A stretch of DNA of 64,000 nt, taken from positions 105,538 to 169,537 of the forward strand of contig CAWHFJ010000014.1 in NCBI GenBank assembly GCA_963828495.1. The letters run 5' to 3'. Shown in pieces: positions 26,314 to 39,428 of the stretch. The stretch is from Candidatus Omnitrophota bacterium (lineage in GTDB: Bacteria > Omnitrophota > Gorgyraeia > Zapsychrales > Fredricksoniimonadaceae). The position numbers and the translations under genes are program-made. Within the stretch, counting starts at the first letter, position 1. Each line of letters starts with the position of its first letter. The notes under the pieces were generated by a model. The model saw only the letters and a list, made by a program, of their open reading frames with translations, did no database searches and had not been told where the DNA came from.

Positions 26314-27501
26314 TTATTTGAGTTTTAAAAAACGCCTTTTCCCGACCTTCAAAACCCCTGGAATGACAAACCAATTCTCATCTTCAATGACTTGTCCTTC
26401 ATGGGTCACGGCTTTTTCTTTAAGCAAACGGCGGCCCTCATTCTTAGTGGCCACTATTTTTGTAACTGCCAATATATCAATAAGTTTTTCCCCTGGCACA
26501 ATTTTATGTTCCGGAATATCTTTTGGAATTTGGTGCTGGCTAAATGTTTTTTCAAAATGCTCACGTGCGCTATGCCCTTCGGCTTTGGGATAAAACATTT
26601 CCACCACCCTCTGGCCCAACTGCAATTTCGCTTCTTTAGGGTGCATTTTTTTAACCGCGTCTAAATCGGCTTCCGTAAGGATCTCATAATAACGCAGCAT
26701 CAACTCATCGCTGATCGACATGATTTTGCCAAAAATCTCATCAGGCTCATCATTAATACCAATGGTGTTGCCCAAAGACTTGCTCATTTTATTAATGCCA
26801 TCCGTGCCTTCCAACAAAGGCGTCATCAGCACGACCTGTGGTTTTTGACCGTACGCCTCCTGCAACTGCCGGCCCATCAGTAAATTAAATTTCTGATCGC
26901 TGCCTCCCAATTCCACATCGGCCTTCAAATGCACGGAATCATAACCTTGCAGAAGAGGATAAATAAACTCCAGCAAACTGATTTCTTTGGCCGTTTCAAA
27001 ACGTTTTTTAAAATCCGCGCGGGCCAGCATCTGGGCCACCGTCAAATGCGCAGACAATTCCAGTAAATCCTGGGGGGTAAGTTTATTAAGCCAGCGGCTG
27101 TTAAATACGACTTCGGTTTTTTTAGGATCGAGGATTTTAAAAACTTGGGCCTCGTAGGTGCGGGCATTCTTCTGAATATCCGCCATGGACATTTTCTTGC
27201 GCAGTTCATTACGCCCCGTGGGGTCTCCCACCTGGGCCGTAAAGTCCCCGATCAAAAAAATCACCCGGTGTCCCAAATCCTGGAACTGTTTCATTTTACG
27301 CAGCAAAACCGTATGGCCTAAATGAATATCCGGTGCGGTAGGGTCAAAACCAGCTTTAATAACTAAGGAGCGGCCTTCTTTGAGTTTGGCCTCAAGGTCA
27401 CCCAAGCTGATGATTTCAGTGGTGCCGCGGGAAAGCTTATGGAGGGCATCTTGAATGGACATAGGAAGAAAGTAATAAGTGACTGAATGACCGCTCGCCA
27501 T
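26314..27501 (-). CDS. tyrS: tyrosine--tRNA ligase
   Basis: 395 aa. HLGH (HIGH) and KMSKS motifs, the class-[14 protein letters not shown] motif, and a C-terminal S4-like domain. An alternative start is the ATG at 27462 ([10 protein letters not shown]). Confidence 0.94.
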
Positions 27502-27531
27502 TTAATAAATGGGCAGACTGTCACCTTTATT

Positions 27532-29076
27532 TTATAATCTAGCACTGACGCCGATTTTCATGCCTTCGACATCAACTTTAATGATTTTCACCTGAAGCTT
27601 ATCACCGGCCTTAAGTGCCGCGGCCTGGGTCTTGTCAATTTCCGAAGAATAAACCAAAGCCTCGATATCATCTTCCAATTTCACAAAAACCCCGAAATTA
27701 GAATTCATGATAACTACCGATGGCACAACAGCCCCCACCGGAAATTTCTCAGCAATGCTATTCCAGGGATTAGCCTGTAACTGTTTGAGCCCCAAAGTAA
27801 TCTTATGAGCTTCCGCTTCCACAGACAGGACGCTCACCTGGACTTCCTGGCCCTTTTGAACAACCTCCTGAGGATGATTGATCTTTTTGGTCCAGGACAT
27901 ATCAGAGACATGGATCATGCCTTCTAACCCATTGCCTAATTCTACGAAAGCCCCATAATCCGTAAATCCGCGGACAATACCTTTGACCGTGGAGCCAACA
28001 GTAAATTTAGCTGCGGCCCCACTCCAAGGATTCTCCTCCAGCTGTTTCATGCTTAAAGAAATACGCTTGGCATCTTTGTCCACATTGATCACCTGCACTT
28101 CAATGACATCCCCTAATTTAAACATTTCCTGAGGATTGACCATTTTCTTCTGCCAGGTGATTTCGGAAGAATGCAAAAGCCCTTCAATGCCTTTGTCGAT
28201 CTCAATAAAGACACCGTAAGGCATAATATTGACAACCTTACCCTTAATACGGGCACCCGGAGGGAATTTGGCTACCGACTCATCCCAGGGATTAGAGGTG
28301 ATCTGTTTGAGCCCCAAAGAAACTTTGGAATTGTCCTTGTCAAAATCCAGGATCAAAACCTCAAGCTTCTGTCCGACGGAAACGATCTCAGAAGGATGGT
28401 TAATACGGCTCCAGCTCATATCCGTAATATGCAAAAGCCCGTCCACACCGCCTAAATCAATGAAAGCCCCGAAATCGGTGATCCCCTTGACCGTACCGCG
28501 GCGTTTTTGGCCTTTTTTAAGCTCTGCCCACAGTTTTTCGCGCACTTCTTCCCTTTCCTTCTGCACCATTTCACGACGGGAAAGGATCAGATTACGGCGC
28601 TGTTTGTTCATCTTGGCTACAACAAATTTGTAATTGTGGGCGGTGATGTCATGATTAGACAAACCTTTGAAAGCGGACAAAGACATCGGTAAAAATGCCT
28701 CGATACCAAAAACATCGACGATATAACCGCCCTTGACCGCGCGCATGACCCGGCCTTCAAGGATGTCACCTTCGTTGATATCATCAGAAATTTTCTGCCA
28801 GCCTTTAAGGCGCTCGGCCTTCGCGTAAGACAGAATCAACCGGCCGTTGTCATCCTCAATATTCTCGATTAAAACCTCAATCGACTGCCCTATGGCTAAT
28901 TCAGCGGGGGCGCGGAATTCCTCAATAGGAACGAACCCTTCAGACTTAAAGCCAATGTCAACGATGACCTCCTTAGGAGTAATCGCCGCAATGGTCCCTT
29001 TGGATACCTCGCCTTCCTTAATATCCTTCAAGGTGCTGGCGTACAACTCTTCCATCAATGATCTTTCTGCATCCAT
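27532..29076 (-). CDS. rpsA: 30S ribosomal protein S1
   Basis: 514 aa made of six repeated S1/OB units (for example G.V.G.V..I..FGAFV.L..G..GL.H.S). Confidence 0.94.
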   Translation of the reverse strand: MDAERSLMEELYASTLKDIKEGEVSKGTIAAITPKEVIVDIGFKSEGFVPIEEFRAPAELAIGQSIEVLIENIEDDNGRLILSYAKAERLKGWQKISDDINEGDILEGRVMRAVKGGYIVDVFGIEAFLPMSLSAFKGLSNHDITAHNYKFVVAKMNKQRRNLILSRREMVQKEREEVREKLWAELKKGQKRRGTVKGITDFGAFIDLGGVDGLLHITDMSWSRINHPSEIVSVGQKLEVLILDFDKDNSKVSLGLKQITSNPWDESVAKFPPGARIKGKVVNIMPYGVFIEIDKGIEGLLHSSEITWQKKMVNPQEMFKLGDVIEVQVINVDKDAKRISLSMKQLEENPWSGAAAKFTVGSTVKGIVRGFTDYGAFVELGNGLEGMIHVSDMSWTKKINHPQEVVQKGQEVQVSVLSVEAEAHKITLGLKQLQANPWNSIAEKFPVGAVVPSVVIMNSNFGVFVKLEDDIEALVYSSEIDKTQAAALKAGDKLQVKIIKVDVEGMKIGVSARL

Positions 29077-29138
29077 GGATTTAAAACCTTCTTTCTTTCA
29101 ATCGGAATTCTTTGTGCGACCTTCCCACAAAGTCTGGT

Positions 29139-29167
29139 AATTATGCCAAAAAGACCCCAAATGTCAA
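29139..29167 (-). promoter_or_regulatory. sigma-70-type promoter for rpsA
   Basis: The minus strand reads TTGACA (29167-29162), a 17-nt spacer, then ATAATT (29144-29139). The predicted 5' UTR contains a 7-bp hairpin, CTTTGTG/CACAAAG, at 29110-29132. Confidence 0.55.
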
Positions 29168-29189
29168 TGAAATTTTTTTAAAAGAGAAA

Positions 29190-32100
29190 TTATACAGGAA
29201 CTGTAGGCGCAGCCGAATTCTCCTGTGCACCTAAAAACTGCCTTAAATCCGTCATCGGCTGGATATTGATAATGACCGGCACAAAGCCCGGGGCGTTACG
29301 TAACTGTTCAAGCATGGCAGGGTCAAGGCGGAATTTGATCCCTGTTCCGGCATTTTGTGTCTGTAAATTCATATGAGCAGGGGTTAAGTCAATACCGCCG
29401 GTATTTGTCTTCATCGCCCGATTTGATTCTTGCCCGGCCGATTGGGTGCTATTCCTATTTTTATCATAATTTTCAACAATTTCTTTTAAAACAGCTCCCC
29501 ACCCTTTACCGCTATCTTCATCATAAACTTTAATAAACTCTATGTCCGGCATCATTTGCTTGAATGTATCAATAAGATGGTAATAATTTGGCCCTACGAC
29601 TATATACTTAACATCACTCATAGTATTAATAGCTCTCTGATCAACCCCGCCAATCAACATAAAACTTCCCATAAAAACCGATTGCAGGGGTGCCTCCTCA
29701 ATATTCCCAATAGGACCAGTATAAAAAGCTCGCGTTGGATCGATCCCATATTTTAGAAAATAAAGAAATTTCTCCAACCGTTGCTGTTTTGCTACACCAT
29801 GCGCTTGAAATCTTATTCCTATCTCATTAATAGGACCATGGGCCCGCATTTCTTCTTCGTCATTAAATCTCTGTGTGGGGCCTTGAATACGCTGATTCAA
29901 CGAATCTACTAAATGACGGATCTCTGCTTCTCTATTATTTTTTGTCTCCAGAAAAGCTGCAATTTCGCCTTTTTTATCGAGTTGGGACCACTCTGCTCTC
30001 ATGCCGTATTGGTACAATTTAGCTATATCGGCTTCCTCCAAATCATCTCTGCGGTCAATGTCACGAAAAGAAGTAAAATCATCCAAAACGAAAACAGGCT
30101 TTCCCTCCGGGGACATAAAAACTTGAAATTGTGAAGGGTAAAAATTCCTTGCTGAAGGCACCACCTTATCTCCTATTAAATTACTTAAAACATTTATTAA
30201 TTCACGGATCTCCTCAGAGTTTAACGATTCTTTTTCACTAAGTCTTTGTCCATGGATCGCCTTCACCCTAAGATAATAATAACCTTCTTGATTCTCCTGC
30301 CAAGCTTCTGTCTGTCCATAACCAATCACACCAGGCAATAAACCTTCTTGTTGAGCCAGGCCGTATGAATGTAATAAGGATCCCAAAGGATCATACGTCC
30401 GGCTTTTTCGATCAGAAAACAAATAAATATCTTCACCATCGTGCCGGAAAATATATAAACCGCCTCCTTCATAAATTAAACTACTTCTCAGATCATGGCC
30501 ATCAATGACAAGGTCTGCACCGTTTTGGCCAAATACAACTTTTCCTTTGATTGGATTAAACGGTATTTCATCATTTAAACGCACGGCCATCGCCTGATTC
30601 ACTATAGATTCCAGTTCCGGGGACACTGCGGCAGAATGGCTTACTTGTTCAATGGCCATCCTCGAAAATGATGAACCATTAAGGTCTTTAATGATCGTTT
30701 GATGTAAATCATAATATGGCCCTAACTCTGCATCACGATACCCAAGCTTTTGATAAAATCTGTCAAAATTAAGCCTGCCGACTTGTTGAGCATAAAATTG
30801 TTCTGCTCCTTCAAAATACGCTACCCGTTCAGCCAATCCCATCAAAGAACTTCCAATACCCTTATATCCGCCTTCATAAGAGCTGGTAACTTGGGGATCA
30901 ACAAAAATGGCATCAGAAGGTTGATACCGGTCAGTCCAAGCATCGGATGGGAATCCTATATCCATTAATGCAAAAATTTTCTTCAGGTTTCTGTTTATTG
31001 TGAAATGAACATATCCGATTTTTTGACCATCTAAATACACATCAATTAAATACCGATGACGATTGGATGTCTCTTTTTTCTGATACTTAAACTCAAAATG
31101 AGTGCCATCGCTGGCCGTTAGCGTGATCCCTTCAGAACTGCCCCTAATCCACCTCTGTACGGTCTCATTAATTTCAGCATCATGCGTATTCTGGATCATC
31201 GCCTGATCAGCAGTTACTTTATCAATTTTTTGTTTTGCGGCGACGGGGTCATTCATCCAGTCCTTACTGCCTTCCTCCTGGATCATCGTCCTTGCCAGAA
31301 GCAGGGCTTTTTCGACACTTCCTGCTTTATGAACAAAATATCGAGCTAAATACAACCCGATCGAATGGGAGATGATGTAGGGATCTTCCATTTTAACTAA
31401 ATCAGGTCGGCTTTTTAAGAATGCCTCTTGGGAGAGACTTTGATTAAAAAAGTCTCTTCCTATTTGGAAAAAAATAACCGGGATATCATTACCGCCTGCA
31501 ATTCTAGCCAATGCATCAAACATCTCATGAACACTGGAGTCTTTCTTGTTTTCCCTACCTGCCAGATTTTCAAACATTAAATGCCCTACTTCCGAAATAA
31601 CACCCCGCTCTCCATTATCGGGATCTATATTCAACAGATGCCTGGAACCAATCCGGTCATCCTCTAGGAAGGAACTGCCTTTCCCAAAACTAAGGTCATC
31701 TTCCGCTGTTCGCAGGGCGATATCCCAAAATTGATCTGACATGGACAATACATCAGACAATAAGGATTCGAGATTAATATTATGAGGATCCGTTGCAAAT
31801 TGCAGGCCTTCTGTCTTTAACATTAAAATATCTACTTCTAAACTCATTCTTTGCTCTTCAGAAATACTTTGCCCCTGATAGAATATATTCAGATAATTTA
31901 GAACTGTTTGAAGGAATTCTCCCTGTTTTTTTCTTATTCCAGTCGTATTTGATTTAACGACGAGTGCTGAATTCTTTATTTCTTGAATCCTGACATTATC
32001 CAGTCCATATAAATGAGCAAGCCAATCGATAGCATGTTCCACTTGGATTTTTAATTCCTTATCTTCCAAAGTATCTACGTCGCCATGGCGCATTATGAAA

Positions 32101-35100
32101 TCTTTCGATAACTTGACCTTTCGGGTTTTCCCCCGTCTTAGAAGATAATCAAAAGCCGTGCCGCTTTTTAATAACCCGTCTTTTTGTTGATTATATAAAG
32201 AATTTAATTCTGCCCTTAAATTTGGAGGCATTGCCACAACATCATTTTCATCTTGGGTGGCTTGAGAATCTTTCCATGCCACAAATTTTGATTCTAATTC
32301 GGGAAATAAAGTGCTCACAGCATCTGTTAGACTGTTGAGAGTGGATCTGCGCCGGATTTCAGCCCCTTCCAGCGCTCTTTTAACCCTATAAAGATCCTCT
32401 TCTATCGGATGGCCCCTTCTTAGAAATCCTGTAAATGTTTGAGGATCTTTAAAAACACTCAGAGGTATATTTTGTTGAGGGGAAGAGATCTCTGCCCGAT
32501 CAAGAGCCAATTGGGCGCTGTCCCCTGCATCGCCTAAAATCTTTAAAACAGTTACCCCCGGGAATATACTGTCCACATGTTTATGTCTGTTCCGCTCCAA
32601 AATAGAGTCCGCAATGCCATCCGGACTATCGTCCTCAGAGATGACATCCTTTTTCAATTCCGGGATCCCTGATGTCATAATCACAAAATCTCCCTCATCA
32701 ACTGGAATGTTTATTGATTCTATATCTCCTGAAACACTTTTACTCTCATCATACGCTCTAAGCTCACCGGATTTCTTAAAAACATATATACGATTCATGC
32801 TTTTATTCTGAACAATCGTAACAAATTGATGACCCTCCGGATCTTGCCAAGCCCCGGCAAGGTTGATATTGACTACTGTACGCAGTGCAGTCGGATTAAC
32901 TTTATAATAACGTCCTATCTGTTCTTCCCCGGCTTGAACAGCTTTTACCAGAAAACCTTCAATCTCTTCCAGGCTTTGGGACGCCTTGGCTTTTTGCCAT
33001 TCGCCCAATTCAGAATTAAAATATTCTCCAATGATATTGTAAACCTCTTTTGTTAATACAACACTGCTTCCGCTAACCAATTTAGCCCGCCCTTGCACCC
33101 TGTCAACATTCCCGAAAGTTTTTCTTAATTTCCCCAGTTCTTTAAATACCCCCAAAATGTACGATGAATCCGGTACTGCCGTCCATTCTAAAGTGGCATC
33201 CTGATTACGACTGCGGAAATATAGTCTGTATTTGCCCTCACCGGTGGGATCAACCCGGATCCTAAACTTTTTGCCTTCTTCATGCTTCACCCCTAATGAT
33301 ACATCTTCAAAGGATTCAGTAGATTCCTCACCTTTAGCTCGAAGCTCCATCCTTACCACTCCCTCTTTAACCCTAATAATATAAACACTATCACCAACTA
33401 CCACTTTGACTCCTTTTTTACCGAAAGTGACAAAATCAGACCTCTTTCTTGGAATAGAAAGCCATTGAGCAACTTCTTGTTGGGCTTCAAGGGCCCATTT
33501 GTTCCTCTCGCCTGCTTTCCAGAACAACTGTGCCCCCCTGTCAGGAGTATCTAATACTTTTAATTTTCCTGCTAATCCTGCCTTCATCATATTTTTTTCA
33601 GGGAAAATTATGTTTAAAGCAATATGATCCACCTGAACAACCCCACCTGGTACAATAGGATAAAGAAAAACTGGAACTGTTGGAAAATATCGATGATTCC
33701 TATAATAATTCCACATCATTTCATCATTGCCGAAGTCTTCTTCATTAATCATCGCCCGATCAAGAGCCAATTGGGCGCTGTCCCCATTTTTCCCGTTTTC
33801 TCCAGCCTTATTTCCCCTTCTCAATATCCGCGCAATATTCCCTAAACGCCATTTTGAAGTGCCGGGTTCTACAGTTAAATTTACGTTATCAGCAGATGAT
33901 GAAATAAATTTTGCTCTAAGTTGGGGAGTTGCACCAATAATCCTTAAAACGAATTCTTCTGCCACATATCGACATGTGCTCCTATATTCTTCCACTACTT
34001 GTGAACCCTTTTCTCCCAATTTCTTCGCCTCAGCCGGGCTTTCCATTAATTTTTGTAAATTAGCCCAGCTAAAATTTTTGATGGCTTTTCTTTTCTCTAG
34101 CTCTGTTTTTAGTTCTATATTATTCCCCCAATCTCCTGGAAGAACCAAAGTCGGGACCCCTGTAACGGCCGGCTCCGCAACATTCCTATCATGACCCAGC
34201 ACGTTTACAGTGCCCAAATTATATAATGCAGGAAGATCTCCCATAGTATCAACTACTAAAATATTACTATCTTTCACATCAACACCATGAATCCCCATAT
34301 TAGATTCCTGATGCTTTAGAGAGTCTTCCAAATAAGCCCAAGAATGATGACTGCCATAACGTTCCTGCAACCTTCTTCTTGCTTTGAGATCGGGAGGCTT
34401 AACTACAACTCTAAAAGCAAGGATGACCAAGGGACGCTGTCCTGCAGGAAGATCTCTATATAACAACGTTTCATTATTTTCTCCCTTTGTTGTCAGCGAA
34501 TCATATGCTTGCATAATTTCATCAAGCTCATCCATCATCCTGGGCGAACCGACAACCATTACTTTCCTTTCTAAACTTATACCTAAAGATTTTTTTATAC
34601 TATTTATTTTATATGGAGGGAGTTTTTCCGGAAGATCAAATTTTAACGGAACATTAGGCGCAGAAGCATAAGTCCGTCCCACAAAGGAATATACTGATAT
34701 ATCCCCGTACGTCCTAAAACCTACTTGAATTTTCTCTTTCTTAAAATCCCGAATCTGCTTTATAACGCTCCCCGGAGAAACTGTTTCAACGCTCTGTGGG
34801 TTCGTTATTTCATCATCATAATACAATGTTATGTTCTCTTTTTGAATACCCATTTCCCTTATAAGCCCTCTTGCAGCATTGATAGAGGCTACCCTATCTA
34901 ATTTTATAGCTAATTTTACCGAACTATCATTGATCGTCATTTTGATTTTTTGCAGCATACGATCAAGGCAAATTTCCGGATTATCAAGAAACCCCGAATT
35001 TTCTCTTAACAATGCTTTTTCAATAAAATTTTCCCCTCTTCCTTCTTTTTTATAAGCAGGATCCTCGGCAACGCCTCTGTTAAGAGCATCAAATATACGG

Positions 35101-36695
35101 AATAATTCTTCCAACTGCTCAACTTTCCAGTTAGCTATTTCATATGCGGCAGCAGGTTCATCATTTAATATCGCAAGCATTTTTAAATAATAAGATAGAC
35201 GGCTTTCCGAAAGCTTTCTTCCATATACCTTTCGGAACATAGCCTCAACTTCTTCTCTGGCAACCCCTCCTTCTTTGGCAACAAGCCTTTGCGAAAAATT
35301 GCTTAACCATTCCTTAAATTTCCCATAACTAGTTTGTTCTCTACTTTCACTCTCTTGTCCTTCAGTATTTATTGCCTGCTTTTCGACCAATGGAACTTTA
35401 TTCTCTATTTCAATCTTCTTTTCTGAAGTGCGGTTAAATATTCGATCTATAACTTTTTTAATTGAAAACATGGCAAGATCTGCGCTCACTATGCTGTACT
35501 TTTGAACATCATCTGACGTCGAAGCTGGAAGATTATGAACTATCTCCATCGCAAAATTAGACTTTAAATTAGTTTCCCCGTTCATAGCAAAATCAAAATT
35601 GACTCCCCCCGAAAAATACTTTCTGGGGATCACTTGTTGGGTCAGTAGATCCGGTTCTTCTTTGATATAGTTGTAAACGCCTTTTTTAAATGCCTGTAGA
35701 TACCGCTCATAAATCTTCTGTTTTTCCTGCGGATCATCAATATTTACACCTGCGACTTTATTTTTGTCTGAATATATTTGAGACAAAATGCTATCCTTAA
35801 CTTTCTTTTTGTACCATGTGGCTAAGATGAGACTGTTGTAGGCCTGACGGAGTTTGGCGAAATTTTTGTCCTCATTAACCTCTTTGGTTAATTCGGGGAT
35901 AACAATTTCGCGGACGATTTGGGAGCCTAAAGCATTGATGCCTCCCCCTTCATGGGAGAGTGGATCATTATCCGTATGTTTTTTTAATGATAAATAATCC
36001 TCCTCCAGCATCACCTTTAATTTGCTTTCAACCACATACGCCGTCCCGGCTTGGGCATTTTCGTACACAACAGCTTTTTCTGGCACTATCCATACCTTAT
36101 TAAACGTATTGACCGGAATATTGGTTGTGCCAAATTTTTTGGCTGCTTCTTCATAGATGCGTTTCCAAAATTTCTTGCCTGTTTTATCTTCAGGATAAAT
36201 CAAACTCGCTGTGATCTGCTTAAGCATGTAGTCTTCTGCTAATAAATCCCGGCCCATTTCGGTTAGGCCAAAGCTTTGGGGAATGATACGGTCTTTTTCA
36301 TATGGGCTTAAATTGACCCACAGGTCTTTTTCGGGAATGGTTAGGCTGGCAAGGAAATACTTTATTAGTTTTGTGGCTTCCTCTTTCAAACTCCCTCTAT
36401 CCCCCTCTTTAACTAAATAGGGGGAATCTCCTTGATCTAAAATAAAATCAAAACGGAATGGGTTATCTGAATTTACTTTGATGCCTTTTAATATGGGAGG
36501 ATTAAATTCCGGGCTTAAATGAACCATGACCCCGGGGGCCGGCAAACGAAATTCCCCGCCTGCCCCACCTGTGGTGGGGCCTGTCCACGAAGCATTTTGA
36601 GCTTGGGCCGTCGGTAGTGGACCCAACGCATTAGACAGAAAGGCGAGGATTATAACTAAAGAGATAACTTTTCTTATATCTAAATTTTCTCCCAT
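29190..36695 (-). CDS. giant (2,501 aa) multidomain protein of unknown function with a signal peptide
   Basis: A single uninterrupted 7,506-nt ORF. The N-terminus MGENLDIRKVISLVIILAFLSNALGPLPTAQAQ looks like a Sec signal peptide. Embedded motifs resemble a GT30/WaaA C-terminal half (PLKFD.., ILVVDTMGDLPALY, HDRNVAEPA) and a GNAT domain (GGYKGIGSSLMGLAE..FYQKLGY). The C-terminus is GGIDLTPAHMNLQTQ..PVIINIQP..FLG. Confidence 0.9.
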   Translation of the reverse strand: MGENLDIRKVISLVIILAFLSNALGPLPTAQAQNASWTGPTTGGAGGEFRLPAPGVMVHLSPEFNPPILKGIKVNSDNPFRFDFILDQGDSPYLVKEGDRGSLKEEATKLIKYFLASLTIPEKDLWVNLSPYEKDRIIPQSFGLTEMGRDLLAEDYMLKQITASLIYPEDKTGKKFWKRIYEEAAKKFGTTNIPVNTFNKVWIVPEKAVVYENAQAGTAYVVESKLKVMLEEDYLSLKKHTDNDPLSHEGGGINALGSQIVREIVIPELTKEVNEDKNFAKLRQAYNSLILATWYKKKVKDSILSQIYSDKNKVAGVNIDDPQEKQKIYERYLQAFKKGVYNYIKEEPDLLTQQVIPRKYFSGGVNFDFAMNGETNLKSNFAMEIVHNLPASTSDDVQKYSIVSADLAMFSIKKVIDRIFNRTSEKKIEIENKVPLVEKQAINTEGQESESREQTSYGKFKEWLSNFSQRLVAKEGGVAREEVEAMFRKVYGRKLSESRLSYYLKMLAILNDEPAAAYEIANWKVEQLEELFRIFDALNRGVAEDPAYKKEGRGENFIEKALLRENSGFLDNPEICLDRMLQKIKMTINDSSVKLAIKLDRVASINAARGLIREMGIQKENITLYYDDEITNPQSVETVSPGSVIKQIRDFKKEKIQVGFRTYGDISVYSFVGRTYASAPNVPLKFDLPEKLPPYKINSIKKSLGISLERKVMVVGSPRMMDELDEIMQAYDSLTTKGENNETLLYRDLPAGQRPLVILAFRVVVKPPDLKARRRLQERYGSHHSWAYLEDSLKHQESNMGIHGVDVKDSNILVVDTMGDLPALYNLGTVNVLGHDRNVAEPAVTGVPTLVLPGDWGNNIELKTELEKRKAIKNFSWANLQKLMESPAEAKKLGEKGSQVVEEYRSTCRYVAEEFVLRIIGATPQLRAKFISSSADNVNLTVEPGTSKWRLGNIARILRRGNKAGENGKNGDSAQLALDRAMINEEDFGNDEMMWNYYRNHRYFPTVPVFLYPIVPGGVVQVDHIALNIIFPEKNMMKAGLAGKLKVLDTPDRGAQLFWKAGERNKWALEAQQEVAQWLSIPRKRSDFVTFGKKGVKVVVGDSVYIIRVKEGVVRMELRAKGEESTESFEDVSLGVKHEEGKKFRIRVDPTGEGKYRLYFRSRNQDATLEWTAVPDSSYILGVFKELGKLRKTFGNVDRVQGRAKLVSGSSVVLTKEVYNIIGEYFNSELGEWQKAKASQSLEEIEGFLVKAVQAGEEQIGRYYKVNPTALRTVVNINLAGAWQDPEGHQFVTIVQNKSMNRIYVFKKSGELRAYDESKSVSGDIESINIPVDEGDFVIMTSGIPELKKDVISEDDSPDGIADSILERNRHKHVDSIFPGVTVLKILGDAGDSAQLALDRAEISSPQQNIPLSVFKDPQTFTGFLRRGHPIEEDLYRVKRALEGAEIRRRSTLNSLTDAVSTLFPELESKFVAWKDSQATQDENDVVAMPPNLRAELNSLYNQQKDGLLKSGTAFDYLLRRGKTRKVKLSKDFIMRHGDVDTLEDKELKIQVEHAIDWLAHLYGLDNVRIQEIKNSALVVKSNTTGIRKKQGEFLQTVLNYLNIFYQGQSISEEQRMSLEVDILMLKTEGLQFATDPHNINLESLLSDVLSMSDQFWDIALRTAEDDLSFGKGSSFLEDDRIGSRHLLNIDPDNGERGVISEVGHLMFENLAGRENKKDSSVHEMFDALARIAGGNDIPVIFFQIGRDFFNQSLSQEAFLKSRPDLVKMEDPYIISHSIGLYLARYFVHKAGSVEKALLLARTMIQEEGSKDWMNDPVAAKQKIDKVTADQAMIQNTHDAEINETVQRWIRGSSEGITLTASDGTHFEFKYQKKETSNRHRYLIDVYLDGQKIGYVHFTINRNLKKIFALMDIGFPSDAWTDRYQPSDAIFVDPQVTSSYEGGYKGIGSSLMGLAERVAYFEGAEQFYAQQVGRLNFDRFYQKLGYRDAELGPYYDLHQTIIKDLNGSSFSRMAIEQVSHSAAVSPELESIVNQAMAVRLNDEIPFNPIKGKVVFGQNGADLVIDGHDLRSSLIYEGGGLYIFRHDGEDIYLFSDRKSRTYDPLGSLLHSYGLAQQEGLLPGVIGYGQTEAWQENQEGYYYLRVKAIHGQRLSEKESLNSEEIRELINVLSNLIGDKVVPSARNFYPSQFQVFMSPEGKPVFVLDDFTSFRDIDRRDDLEEADIAKLYQYGMRAEWSQLDKKGEIAAFLETKNNREAEIRHLVDSLNQRIQGPTQRFNDEEEMRAHGPINEIGIRFQAHGVAKQQRLEKFLYFLKYGIDPTRAFYTGPIGNIEEAPLQSVFMGSFMLIGGVDQRAINTMSDVKYIVVGPNYYHLIDTFKQMMPDIEFIKVYDEDSGKGWGAVLKEIVENYDKNRNSTQSAGQESNRAMKTNTGGIDLTPAHMNLQTQNAGTGIKFRLDPAMLEQLRNAPGFVPVIINIQPMTDLRQFLGAQENSAAPTVPV
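32494..32525. repeat. 32-nt exact direct repeat, copy 2 (within the giant ORF)
   Basis: gcccgatcaagagccaattgggcgctgtcccc is identical to 33754-33785. In frame on the minus strand it encodes GDSAQLALDRA (aa 1391-1401). Confidence 0.95.
33754..33785. repeat. 32-nt exact direct repeat, copy 1 (within the giant ORF)
   Basis: Identical to 32494-32525. Encodes GDSAQLALDRA (aa 971-981). The spacing is exactly 1,260 nt, or 420 codons. Confidence 0.95.
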
Positions 36696-36804
36696 AACTA
36701 AAGTATAAACTATCTATATAGAATTTGCCACTTGGTGAGAATTTTGGGGAATTGTCTGTTTTTTAAAGCGGCTTTGGAGCCAGGGCCTCCCCTCATACCG
36801 GGGA

Positions 36805-37383
36805 CTATCGCAGGTCGTAAATTCTATCTAAAATGCGTTGGGATGCTTGTTCATAGCTGGGCGCATCCTTAACGAAAAACGGCTCTCCAAAGGTGGCGGA
36901 CACCGGGCCTCTTTTGAGAAATTTAGTGCCGGGAGCCATGACTTGATTGGTCCCTTGCAGATAAACGGGCACCACCGGTACCCCGGATTTGATCGCTAAA
37001 AAACCAGCCCCGGCCTGGGCTTTGGGTAGCGCATTGCCGATACGCCTGGTCCCTTCCACAAAAATCAAAATCACCCTGCCATTTTTTAAACGCTTGAGCG
37101 CTTCTTTCATAGCGCCTAAATCCGCCTCACCCCTTTTGACCGGAAAAGACCCCAGACGGGTCAAAACAAACCCTAAAGCGCCCTTAAACAGCTCTATCTT
37201 GGCCATAAAATTAATCCGGCGCACGGAACAAATACCTAAAAGCACCGGGTCCAGATTGCTGATGTGATTACTGGCTAAGATAAAAGCGCCCTGACGCGGG
37301 ATGTTGCGGGTCTGATGGGCGCTGAAAGGAAAAAAAAGCCAGCTGACAACCTTGGTTAAGAAATAGACGATGTAATAAATCAT
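36805..37383 (-). CDS. plsC: 1-acyl-sn-glycerol-3-phosphate acyltransferase family protein
   Basis: 192 aa. Contains NHISNLDP (HX4D) and FVEGTRR. Has an N-terminal membrane anchor. Confidence 0.85.
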   Translation of the reverse strand: MIYYIVYFLTKVVSWLFFPFSAHQTRNIPRQGAFILASNHISNLDPVLLGICSVRRINFMAKIELFKGALGFVLTRLGSFPVKRGEADLGAMKEALKRLKNGRVILIFVEGTRRIGNALPKAQAGAGFLAIKSGVPVVPVYLQGTNQVMAPGTKFLKRGPVSATFGEPFFVKDAPSYEQASQRILDRIYDLR

Positions 37384-37387
37384 ACAT

Positions 37388-38806
37388 TTAATTTGGGTCT
37401 ATTTGTTGGCGGCCGAATTCCAATATGGCTTTGGAGCGTTTAAGCGTTTTAGCTTCCGAGTAAATACGCACCAGCGGTTCCGTCCCTGAGGGACGAAACA
37501 TCAGCCAGTCCTCATTATCACAGGTAAGCTTGACCCCGTCATAATCCTTGACCTCAATGACCTTCCTGCCTAAAATAGAAGTAATCGTTTTCAATTTATT
37601 TAAATCGACTTTTTGGGCATCCATCTTATAATCCAGCCGCTCATAATAATACCGCCCGAATTCACGCTCCATGTCTTGGACTAATTGCTTAAAATTTTTC
37701 TTATTATAAACCATCATCTCCAAAAGCAAAAGACCGGCCAGGGTGCCGTCACGCTCAGGGATAAAATTGGGCAGGCCCATGCCTCCGGCTTCTTCCCCGC
37801 CGGCGACGATCTTTTCAGAAATCATCAAATCCGAGATATATTTAAAGCCTACCGGCGTTTCGTAAAGTTTACGCCCAAGTTTCTTGGCAATATTGTCCAT
37901 CATGGTTGTCCCGCAAAGCGTTTTGATGATACCGCCTTCGACATTACGGTTGCGCACCAGATGCAAAACTAAAAGCCCTAAAATCTTCTGGGGAGAAACA
38001 AATTCACCTCCGGGCATGACCGCGGCGATACGATCAGCATCTCCGTCAAGCACATGGCCAAAATCAAACTTTTCTTTTTTCATACGGGACATTATTAACC
38101 CTAAACATTCCGGAATAGGTTCGGGCTTACTGCCATCGAAAGAAGGATTAACATCCTCACGCATCAGGGTAAGCTTAATGTCCGTACCTTTAAGTATCTG
38201 GCGCATCAAATCACGGCCGGAGCCATGCATAATATCAGACAACACTTTAAATTTAGCCTTTTTCATTTTCTTTAAATTCACGTAAGCGCGCAGGAACTTG
38301 ACATACCCTTTTTTAAAATCATGCACAACGATCAACCCTTGGGCCAAAGCTTCAGAAAAATTCATACGCTTCAGGGGAGTCTGACCTAGATAGCTCTCGA
38401 CGGTACCAGTAATATCTTTAGACGCGGCGCCGCCTTGGGCTGTTTTAATTTTAATCCCGTTAAATTTAGCGGGATTATGGGAGGCCGTGATCATAATACC
38501 GCATACATTCTTAAAACCCACCACACCGAAACTCAACGTAGGGGTCGGCAAAGACGTATCGGAAAGATATGTTTTGATACCATTGGCCGCAAAAACTTCC
38601 GCGACAGCTTGGGCATATTCTGCGGACAGAAAACGATTGTCATACCCCACCGAAACCGACTTATCAGGAAATTGAGGATTGTTTTTGTGAACCCAATCCG
38701 CCACCGCCTGGGCCACAATGCGCACATTCTCAAAAGTAAAAGTGTCGGAAATAACCGCGCGCCAGCCGTCGGTGCCGAATTTGATTTGTGATCTAATATC
38801 GCTCAT
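37388..38806 (-). CDS. phosphoglucomutase/phosphomannomutase (alpha-D-phosphohexomutase family)
   Basis: 472 aa from the ATG at 38806, with a GGAGAG SD. Contains FGTDGWR, the active-site loop TASHNPAKFNGIK, and DGDADR. The track ORF start at 38848 would overlap nadD. Confidence 0.88.
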   Translation of the reverse strand: MSDIRSQIKFGTDGWRAVISDTFTFENVRIVAQAVADWVHKNNPQFPDKSVSVGYDNRFLSAEYAQAVAEVFAANGIKTYLSDTSLPTPTLSFGVVGFKNVCGIMITASHNPAKFNGIKIKTAQGGAASKDITGTVESYLGQTPLKRMNFSEALAQGLIVVHDFKKGYVKFLRAYVNLKKMKKAKFKVLSDIMHGSGRDLMRQILKGTDIKLTLMREDVNPSFDGSKPEPIPECLGLIMSRMKKEKFDFGHVLDGDADRIAAVMPGGEFVSPQKILGLLVLHLVRNRNVEGGIIKTLCGTTMMDNIAKKLGRKLYETPVGFKYISDLMISEKIVAGGEEAGGMGLPNFIPERDGTLAGLLLLEMMVYNKKNFKQLVQDMEREFGRYYYERLDYKMDAQKVDLNKLKTITSILGRKVIEVKDYDGVKLTCDNEDWLMFRPSGTEPLVRIYSEAKTLKRSKAILEFGRQQIDPN

Positions 38807-38819
38807 ATGACTCTCCTCA

Positions 38820-39428
38820 TTAAAAATATAATCGATGACGATTAACATAACGTATAACAGCCTTGGGCGTCAAATACCAGATGGACTTCTTATGTTTAAG
38901 GCGCTGGCGGATGTCACTGGAAGAAATATCAACAGCCGGCATATTGATTTTTAAATAAGGCCAGCGCTTAGGATAATTTTTGTCAAATCCAGGGCGGTTT
39001 AATATGACCAAGGTGGCTAAACGTAAAATGCCCTGTGGGTCCTTCCAGCGGTGGAACTCCCTTAAACTATCCTCTCCCATCAATAAATAAAATTTGGCCC
39101 GAGGATAGTTGTTGCTAAGTTCTTTTAATGTGTCGATGGTGTAAGACACGCCTTTGCGGCGCAACTCGCCATCGTACAATTTAAAAGCCCTGTTACCTTT
39201 GATGGCCTCTTTGACCATCACTAAACGTTTATCCGCCGCCGGCAGACGATGATGGGCCTTAAATGGTGACCGATTCGCCGGCACAAAAAACACCCCATCA
39301 AGCTTCAAAGTCTCCGTGGCACTTTGGGCCATGAGCAAGTGACCAAAATGAATAGGATCAAAGCTGCCGCCTAATACACCAATCTTCATTCTTGGACCGT
39401 TTCTACGCATCTTGTTATTAGAACTCAA
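38820..39428 (-). CDS. nadD: nicotinate-nucleotide adenylyltransferase
   Basis: Contains GGSFDPIHFGHL (HxGH). The start is uncertain: TTG at 39428, ATG at 39410, or ATG at 39389. Confidence 0.88.
   Translation of the reverse strand: MSSNNKMRRNGPRMKIGVLGGSFDPIHFGHLLMAQSATETLKLDGVFFVPANRSPFKAHHRLPAADKRLVMVKEAIKGNRAFKLYDGELRRKGVSYTIDTLKELSNNYPRAKFYLLMGEDSLREFHRWKDPQGILRLATLVILNRPGFDKNYPKRWPYLKINMPAVDISSSDIRQRLKHKKSIWYLTPKAVIRYVNRHRLYF

Follow-up and report, generated by a model that had tools for sequence, protein, structure and literature searches.

The window studied here, that is, the whole stretch of 64,000 nt of Candidatus Omnitrophota DNA that was analysed, contains a gene for a modular protein of 2,501 amino acids (aa) in which one 32-nt sequence occurs twice. 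We consider it probable, with moderate confidence, that this repeat represents two instances of a junction element that separates the modules of a large, module-shuffling protein family of Omnitrophota. The junctions of this family carry a protein-level short linear motif, D-x-A-[M/Q], located in the linkers between modules. The family has a conserved N-domain and a conserved C-terminal domain with the sequence GGIDL. It is a large Candidatus Omnitrophota family with no published description that we could find, and our literature search returned no description of the D-x-A-M motif either.

According to the explanation we prefer, a family protein would consist of a signal peptide, the conserved N-domain, a set of interchangeable enzyme modules and the GGIDL domain. 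The junction element carries a punctuation motif, which takes the two-part form DSAQL-x2-DRAM in this gene and is found at essentially every module border, in linkers that do not belong to the folded cores. The two copies of the repeat bracket exactly one mobile module, which has a PP2C-like fold in the model. The nucleotide identity of the copies would be a trace left by recombination at junctions, be it intragenic conversion or the insertion or exchange of a module through junction-to-junction homology, and the same process would keep the cargo of the family hypervariable. In the protein, the motif would serve for recognition, and probably for cleavage, by a conserved factor.

The repeat is real and non-random. 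The 32-mer GCCCGATCAAGAGCCAATTGGGCGCTGTCCCC is found at positions 32494-32525 and 33754-33785, 1,260 nt apart, and the window contains no other exact direct repeat of 20 nt or longer. There is no third copy, even with three mismatches allowed, and none of 100 shuffled sequences contained two matches to the 32-mer. Flanking bases differ at once on both sides (t/c at 32493/33753 and t/a at 32526/33786). Both copies are in frame within the open reading frame (ORF) at 29190-36695, each beginning on a codon boundary, and the block reads GGG GAC AGC GCC CAA TTG GCT CTT GAT CGG GC on the coding strand. The encoded residues, G971-A981 and G1391-A1401, are GDSAQLALDRA in both cases, followed by MINEEDF in one copy and EISSPQQ in the other. 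The original prediction had described the repeat, its spacing and frame, the diverging flanks and the two continuations in the same way, and sequence and translation confirm them; its description of the gene left the strand unstated and is corrected here, as the gene lies on the minus strand.

The probability that two independent encodings of the same ten complete codons match is about 9e-6 given the codon usage of the gene, and several of the 11 residues fall at positions that the family motif leaves free. Because of these two observations the copies must be recent copies of each other, not products of convergent selection on a peptide. The G+C content of the block is 66%, compared to 40% for the gene. 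The identity stops within the second half-motif, which is DRA-M in copy 1 and DRA-E in copy 2, and it is sharp at both sides; a block of this shape resembles a breakpoint more closely than it does a peptide under selection.

The junction motif and the modules of the family

The homologue search gave more than 2,500 matches among 8,000 scored candidates. The best 120 matches listed are 1,376-3,586 aa long, and all taxon names given by the source are Candidatus Omnitrophica or Omnitrophota; family members in general measure 0.7-3.6 thousand amino acids (kaa). Homologues have only two parts of the query in common, namely the first ~410 and the last ~100 residues. More specifically, the N-terminal ~410 aa are aligned in 120/120 of the best matches with 52-81% identity, and the C-terminal domain in 118-119 of them. 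The N-domain, about 370 aa long, ends with ..RKYFSGG and has 106 invariant columns in an alignment of 26 sequences. The Pfam domains of the cargo vary and include methyltransferases, HATPase_c, GNAT, GGDEF, HEAT, His-phosphatase, ROK, DHQ synthase, helicases and M48 peptidase.

Motif counts in 74 family genes from 79 GTDB loci were compared with the expectation obtained by shuffling. D-x-A-[QM] was observed 232 times against 27 expected, D-x-A-M 195 times against 9.6, and the looser form N-x-A-[QM] 78 times against 26. Counted over family ORFs, D-x-A-M occurs 216 times where 10 are expected (~21-fold), and the 385 neighbouring ORFs that do not belong to the family show no enrichment (10 observed, 17 expected). 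The cargo zones of 186 non-identical family proteins contain 656 motifs, which is 3.5 per protein and 2.6 per 1,000 aa. Their consensus is D-[RQSLA]-A-[M/Q]-x-[AST], with M at 84% and Q at 16% of sites; upstream positions are not conserved, and conservation is limited to D, A, M/Q and the small residue at +2 after M/Q. Among the 656 motifs there are 23 two-part cases (D.AQh-x2-8-D.AM) and 46 tandem D.AM pairs.

The motif marks the borders of the modules. It occurs at most 60 aa after YFSGG in 88% of family proteins and starts at most 30 aa upstream of GGIDL in 73%. In four of four multi-enzyme homologues the motifs lie between the Pfam domains, with a loose N-x-A-Q match as the sole exception. 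A conserved linker had been one of the explanations offered in the original prediction, together with the proposal to align homologues around domain borders. That idea holds in a wider form than proposed, DSAQL..DRAM being one form of a family motif found in hundreds of homologues, and the Pfam positions and the edges of the N- and C-domains place the motif at the borders. The two-part junction looks like the tail of the upstream module (DSAQL) joined to the head of the downstream one (D-x-A-M), because homologues of module A are usually followed by D(S/P)AQL and those of module B begin with D-x-A-M.

Both end domains come close to the motif. In the N-domain, YFSGG is directly followed by a D-x-A-M site (DFAM, 35583-35594). 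The C-domain starts with GGIDL, and its DPAM (29313-29324) is part of a string D-P-A-M-L-x-Q-L that resembles the junction form DSAQLA..Q. Judged from these sequences, both end domains may be related to the junction motif or interact with it.

The features of the gene are as follows (positions in the window; all on the minus strand).

29190..36695: modular-protein gene, 2,501 aa, with predicted signal peptide, N-domain, cargo modules A to E and C-terminal GGIDL domain
35604..36695: signal-like segment and N-domain; aa 1-33 hydrophobic, ending ..AQAQ, N-domain aa 34-364
35469..35594: three motifs after YFSGG, DFAM (aa 368-371), NFAM (aa 380-383) and DLAM (aa 406-409)
33819..35354: module A, aa ~448-959; present also in P0002, P0003, P0005 (twice), P0007, P0009 and P0057, at differing positions
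33754..33785: repeat copy 1, junction A/B, G971-A981; together with the next codon, ATG, it gives the full two-part DSAQL-AL-DRAM
32526..33752: module B, aa 982-1390, bracketed by the repeats (blastp borders 981-1389/1409); homologues in P0001, P0004, P0010, P0018, P0019 and P0034 (blastp against family matches)
32494..32525: repeat copy 2, junction B/C, G1391-A1401
31158..32492: module C, aa ~1402-1846 (1390-1846 in the blastp map); homologous to P0060 aa 466-923
31197..31208: DQAM junction motif, aa 1830-1833, where module C meets the GNAT-like module
aa ~1834-2133: GNAT-like module, also in P0008, P0011 and P0074
30588..30599: NQAM motif, aa 2033-2036
29412..29423: NRAM junction motif, aa 2425-2428, starting 8 residues upstream of GGIDL and ending 4 before it
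29193..29438: C-terminal domain, aa ~2420-2501, GGIDL ... F-x-L-DPAML-x-QL-x-NAPGF, with its own D-P-A-M

This protein has ten motif sites, which fall at its module borders. The NRAM site ahead of GGIDL, which had been noted earlier as a related junction, is a true member of the motif class according to both the motif listing and the family-wide position of motifs before GGIDL. The N-terminal hydrophobic segment is a predicted signal peptide. With this protein as query, blastp finds module A in one group of homologues and module B in a different group, and the stretch aa ~2134-2410 is almost without a homologue among the top 120 matches. The string GGIDL...DPAML.QL.NAPGF occupies aa 2433-2501. 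Searches of the whole protein with Pfam, NCBIfam, PHROGs and PADLOC returned nothing beyond weak GNAT matches at aa 1870-1987 (Pfam) and a weak KdtA-like match at aa 808-907, inside module A. The N-domain gave no match in Pfam, NCBIfam, PHROG, PADLOC or PDB sequences, and a search with the C-terminal domain returned only short nameless fragments. An ORF of 155 aa with a TTG start on the opposite strand (33727-34194, plus) overlaps copy 1 of the repeat and lies wholly inside the 2,501-aa gene; it is without support and most likely spurious.

Module B, 409 aa long, corresponds precisely to what the two repeat copies enclose. The AlphaFold model of aa 940-1440, built on a shallow alignment of 7 sequences, has a mean pLDDT (predicted local distance difference test) of 68.5, with a confident fold at aa ~990-1388 and 70-93 in the core. 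Both junction copies have pLDDT below 50 and lie just outside the folded core, drawn as weak short helices. In a Foldseek search of the PDB, the C-terminal ~230 residues of module B matched the phosphatase tPphA best (2j82, E 5.5e-8, TM 0.70 on the target); next came PstP, MspP, PPM1K, RsbX and SpoIIE, the PDB entries listed after 2j82 being 1txo, 2jfr, 2iq1, 3w40 and 3t9q, and SidD and Lem3 of Legionella were also among the matches. Modelling thus supports, at the level of fold, a PP2C/PPM-like core in module B, in agreement with the PP2C resemblance that had been suspected for the segment between the repeats; the PPM fold is one of two central beta-sheets with helices on either side. It differs from the PP2C/PPM phosphatases compared (tPphA, PstP, RsbX, SpoIIE, SidD and Lem3) in having a sequence identity of only 9-14% and an extra, beta-rich N-terminal part of ~170 aa, and no Pfam PP2C or SpoIIE match to the module was found. 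The 7-sequence alignment contains invariant Asp and Gly columns.

A phmmer search of 1.84 billion representative proteins found 7 relatives of module B, each of them part of a family protein and none stand-alone. A word-indexed homologue search with the module gave zero matches, although the 45-49% identical P0001 exists; this miss reflects the sensitivity of the tool and not biology, and negatives from indexed searches are not proof of absence. Homologues of module B start with D-x-A-M-x-x-E-[DE] and end with ..VLKI.., followed by D.AM or DSAQL...D.AM. In other family proteins they occupy different positions and are flanked on both sides by the same motifs. An origin of module B as an old tandem duplication was rejected, as the module has no detectable homology to the rest of the protein.

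Proposed recombination at the junctions

Our estimate is that the chances are even or slightly better that the nucleotide identity of the copies records recent recombination at junctions, whether insertion, exchange or intragenic conversion. Two further genes of the family have repeats of the same kind. In the gene at locus L051 a 43-nt exact repeat encodes GDSAQLAKQADQAM at aa 397 and 702, and there is also an 18-nt repeat encoding GDRAM. In the gene at L047 a 28-nt exact repeat encodes NEGMDRAMK at aa 1914 and 2162. In both genes the junction repeats lie around a module. At motif sites, 4/554 pairs from the same gene have an exact in-register match of 24 nt or more. Between genes, no pair of cargo junctions reached 24 nt among 2,289 pairs from the same metagenome-assembled genome (MAG) and 40,228 pairs from different MAGs; the few longer between-gene matches are confined to the conserved N-domain site NFAQL. 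The longest junction match between MAGs, 22 nt, is that of the present gene with L051.

The L051 protein also has a recent internal duplication of a module (aa 730-1030 and 1454-1741, 63% aa identity, exact nucleotide runs up to 47 nt) beside older, 27%-identical module copies, each with a junction motif ahead of it.

Seven family genes, the present one (with its neighbours, window 26314-38848) and those at L102 (P0082), L042, L055, L057, L058 and L060, occupy one chromosomal position, PGM-PlsC-[X]-S1-TyrRS. Here PGM and PlsC are on one side, and ribosomal protein S1 and tyrosyl-tRNA synthetase (TyrRS) on the other. The flanking proteins are 80-95% identical. The family proteins at this position vary in length between 1,603 and over 3,200 aa and have N-domains of only 63-73% identity, and their cargo is almost wholly unrelated. 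The locus is a hypervariable gene inside a conserved housekeeping neighbourhood. The paralogues are dispersed among housekeeping genes, and there are many of them per MAG, up to 11 of the 79 fetched loci coming from a single one.

A signal is seen also in the codons of the junctions. At D[SN]AQ[LV] sites in 12 genes of different genomes, Asp is GAC in 10/12 (background 26%) and Ser is AGY in 12/12 (background 36%), and the codon consensus for DSAQLA is GGG GAC AGC GCC CAA TTG GCC. Five of these 12 genes, including this one and the syntenic L102, have at least 20 identical nucleotides, and the modules around them are unrelated. At D-x-A-M sites the Ala before Met is encoded by GCG in 41% of cases, compared to 16% elsewhere (p = 1e-8). 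For Arg the share of CGG is 61%, compared to 19% (p = 2e-7), and for Gln that of CAG is 79%, compared to 42% (p = 6e-6). The codon consensus of D-x-A-M is GAY-C[G/A]G-GCG-ATG. This synonymous bias is confined to the two motif codons. Asp codon usage in the general motif equals the background. The bias could reflect a common origin of junction words that recombination has spread, a pause at rare codons, or a DNA or RNA signal. A broad tract of GC-biased conversion at the junctions was considered and rejected, since the increase in G+C at third codon positions (GC3) does not reach beyond the two motif codons.

Roles considered for the motif

From sequence and models it is possible, though we place it somewhat below even chances, that the motif is a putative recognition site for processing and the proteins are exported polyproteins. 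We counted for this reading the near-invariant D, A and M (or Q) in otherwise free, disordered linkers, the frequent doubling of the motif, and its occurrence at every border, those beside the two end domains included. A combined reading, in which a protease would cut the exported polyproteins at D-x-A-M/Q and the junction words (GGGGACAGCGCCCAATTGGC, GAYCNGGCGATG) would double as in-frame homology for exchange, is unlikely in our estimate. If true, it would account for the variable cargo seen at a single locus as well as for the exact junction repeats that surround individual modules. The giant proteins of the phylum, which are 10-150 kaa long, may share this punctuation.

Several points weigh against the explanation we prefer. 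The motif statistics come from only ~20 MAGs, each of which supplies many paralogues, and the sites are therefore not independent. The paralogues of one MAG do not share long junction words, and a genome-wide pool of identical junctions was not seen. In L051 the modules that follow the identical junctions are paralogues of only 27% identity, and because of this the pattern favours local conversion over insertion. A repeat of 32 nt is about as short as RecA-dependent recombination allows. The original prediction had listed gene conversion and a substrate for recombination among the possible explanations. In favour of this are the recent mutual copying, the two other genes alike and the shuffled cargo; against it, no deletion or duplication variant between the repeats is present in three assemblies of this gene. 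Profile libraries, Foldseek and the 79 loci revealed no protease, autoprocessing fold or conserved neighbour gene, and the D-P-A-M-L-x-Q-L string inside the conserved C-domain counts against processing. Synonymous bias within the motif hints at a constraint at the nucleotide level that the protein-level reading does not explain. Finally, the AlphaFold model of the N-domain is poor (pLDDT 54) and cannot be interpreted. Taken together, the support for recombination is convergent and indirect, and processing, another explanation listed in the original prediction, is plausible as judged from sequence and models.

The low-confidence model of the N-domain (35286-36695) consists of long helices and a beta-hairpin region. 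Foldseek found nothing below E 0.1 with this model; the best matches, which are not significant (E 0.1-2), include stalk subunits of V-ATPase, colicin Ia and ClyA-type pore-forming toxins (MakA/B/E, NheA, SmhA), and these are a lead and not evidence. In the neighbourhoods, all-against-all clustering of 636 neighbouring ORFs gave no conserved protease or secretion gene, the best-shared cluster, with 7/79 loci, being an ABC-F ATPase.

The motif could instead be a structural or docking element that is not cleaved, i.e. a helix N-cap, a linker helix or a bound peptide, with the 32-nt identity as a neutral by-product of intragenic conversion; we regard this, the main rival, as rather unlikely. The docking partner could be the conserved N- or C-domain, a chaperone or a secretion factor. 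In favour of it, the short low-confidence helices of the AlphaFold model begin at the Asp of both copies, and further points are the D-P-A-M-L-x-Q-L string within an apparently folded domain and the negative protease search. In L051, moreover, identical junctions precede diverged paralogous modules, which is what conversion predicts. However, a cap or a linker needs neither a near-invariant Met/Gln nor the doubling seen in the 23 two-part and 46 tandem cases, and conversion over 32 nt is a difficult mechanism to invoke where the flanks share no homology.

It is considerably less probable that the nucleotide word itself is functional, as a DNA site of a cassette recombination system or as a signal in mRNA or translation such as a rare-codon pause. 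The synonymous biases at D[SN]AQ[LV] and D-x-A-M, confined as they are to the motif codons, agree with such a role. So does a trio of tyrosine recombinases (L047 1204-4400, resembling a recombinase-in-trio), which precedes the family gene at L047 by about 5.5 kb. But Asp codons in the general motif are at background, and Met and Gln alternate although their codons differ at two to three positions, which points to selection on the peptide. RNA structure at the repeats was rejected with fold z-scores of 0.37, 1.01 and -1.06 (a range of -1.1 to +1.0), and so was a known RNA family, as the repeats have no Rfam match and the gene elsewhere has two sub-threshold chance matches. Homologues of the recombinase trio are found in 5/79 loci, including L025, and a recombinase is not a conserved neighbour across the 79 loci, where the ABC-F ATPase is the best-shared cluster; the trio is probably an unrelated mobile element. 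Site-specific recombination cassettes (integron- or shufflon-like) have a dedicated recombinase and conserved DNA sites on either side; observed here, besides these neighbour results, were the identical direct repeats flanking the module and the synonymous-site conservation of the junction words. The word is also rare in JGI metagenomes, where the exact 20-mer was found at 18 loci, only 3 of which (2 genes) belong to the family, and a degenerate search for DSAQLALDRA-coding sequences gave no matches.

Internal translation starts (ATG, or TTG after DSAQ) that produce separate downstream proteins would agree with the near-invariant Met and with the Leu after DSAQ being mostly TTG or GTG, but they are highly improbable: Shine-Dalgarno-like sequences precede 11% of junction ATGs and 12% of other internal ATGs, Gln replaces Met at 16% of sites, and module B is never stand-alone.

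An assembly chimera or a chance coincidence has a negligible probability: short exact repeats can cause mis-joins in de Bruijn graphs, but the chimera is excluded for practical purposes because two more assemblies, from sister samples, carry both 32-mers 1,260 nt apart (L001 with 100% and L099 with 99.08% identity), contig names and frameshifted neighbours suggest long reads, and both the shuffles and the codon identity argue against chance. The additional assemblies are ERZ25039473 contig_118073 (L001) and ERZ25039472 contig_7465 (L099). Their housekeeping neighbours S1, PGM, TyrRS and rpoB are split up into a number of short ORFs, as happens in long-read assemblies that have not been corrected. 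The 7.5-kb gene studied here is intact in L001 and fully identical to the window. No similarity to plasmids was found.

Known modular systems and the meaning of the junctions

By comparison with known systems, the family is organised most like the MARTX toxins and the polymorphic toxins with demarcation motifs, and it is a member of neither because it lacks RTX repeats, a cysteine-protease domain (CPD) and a toxin-immunity pair and has housekeeping genes as neighbours. MARTX toxins of Vibrio and other bacteria are likewise large exported proteins with conserved N- and C-terminal regions. Between these regions lies a series of effector or enzyme modules, unrelated to one another, which recombination makes different from strain to strain. 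In both, unstructured linkers between the modules contain a short signal, which is a processing signal in MARTX and a candidate one, judged from sequence, in the present family. Unlike MARTX, the family protein has no RTX or glycine-rich repeats and no CPD (Pfam/NCBIfam, E up to 0.1). No type I secretion context was detected, the N-terminus is of a predicted Sec type, and the motif is D-x-A-M/Q instead of the Leu-(Ala/Ser/Gly) of MARTX.

Polymorphic toxin systems with demarcation motifs such as VENN were reportedly described by Zhang et al. in 2012. Such toxins (CdiA-CT, Rhs and MafB, with VENN or PxxxxDPxGL) share with the family a short conserved motif at the border of constant and variable parts. 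The coding sequence of that motif is thought to supply homology for cassette exchange, and the cargo varies among close relatives, as here. The likeness is one of organisation and not of sequence. In the present family the variable part is internal and consists of several modules, whereas the C-terminus is conserved. There is no downstream immunity gene and there are no orphan cassettes, the neighbours being ribosomal protein S1, TyrRS, PlsC and PGM. The cargo belongs to ordinary enzyme families and not to recognised toxins.

Viral polyproteins, as is generally known, are cut by 3C or 3C-like proteases with Gln at P1. Their resemblance to the family may lie in a short linear motif, Gln (or Met) after a small residue, that is repeated at every domain border of a long multi-enzyme polypeptide; the family differs in being bacterial and chromosomal and in that a protease domain was not identified.

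Omnitrophota are ultra-small, probably predatory or parasitic bacteria noted for huge multi-enzyme proteins of unknown function. These giant proteins have the same cargo repertoire as the present family (methyltransferase, HATPase_c, GNAT, HAD, PGM and HEAT), but they are at least 10,000 aa long, compared to 0.7-3.6 kaa here. The parts of the two papers on giant proteins available to us (West-Roberts et al. 2023, bioRxiv 10.1101/2023.11.21.568195; bioRxiv 10.64898/2026.06.07.730766) describe neither an N-domain/GGIDL scaffold nor a junction motif. In the same parts the authors treat cleavage as an open question and state that missing cleavage points blocked structural analysis.

Our results indicate that the repeat marks a place where modules are joined, probably exchanged and possibly cut. 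The junction repeats, the hypervariable syntenic cargo and the codon conservation at junctions together suggest in-frame shuffling of modules, comparable to cassette exchange in polymorphic toxins. If the motif is only a linker, it still defines a large family with no description found, together with its domain grammar. It also gives a simple in silico rule for splitting these proteins into modules. A punctuation motif that is short and has very strong statistics, found at every module border of this related family of thousands of members, would provide a concrete candidate for the cleavage points of the giant proteins.

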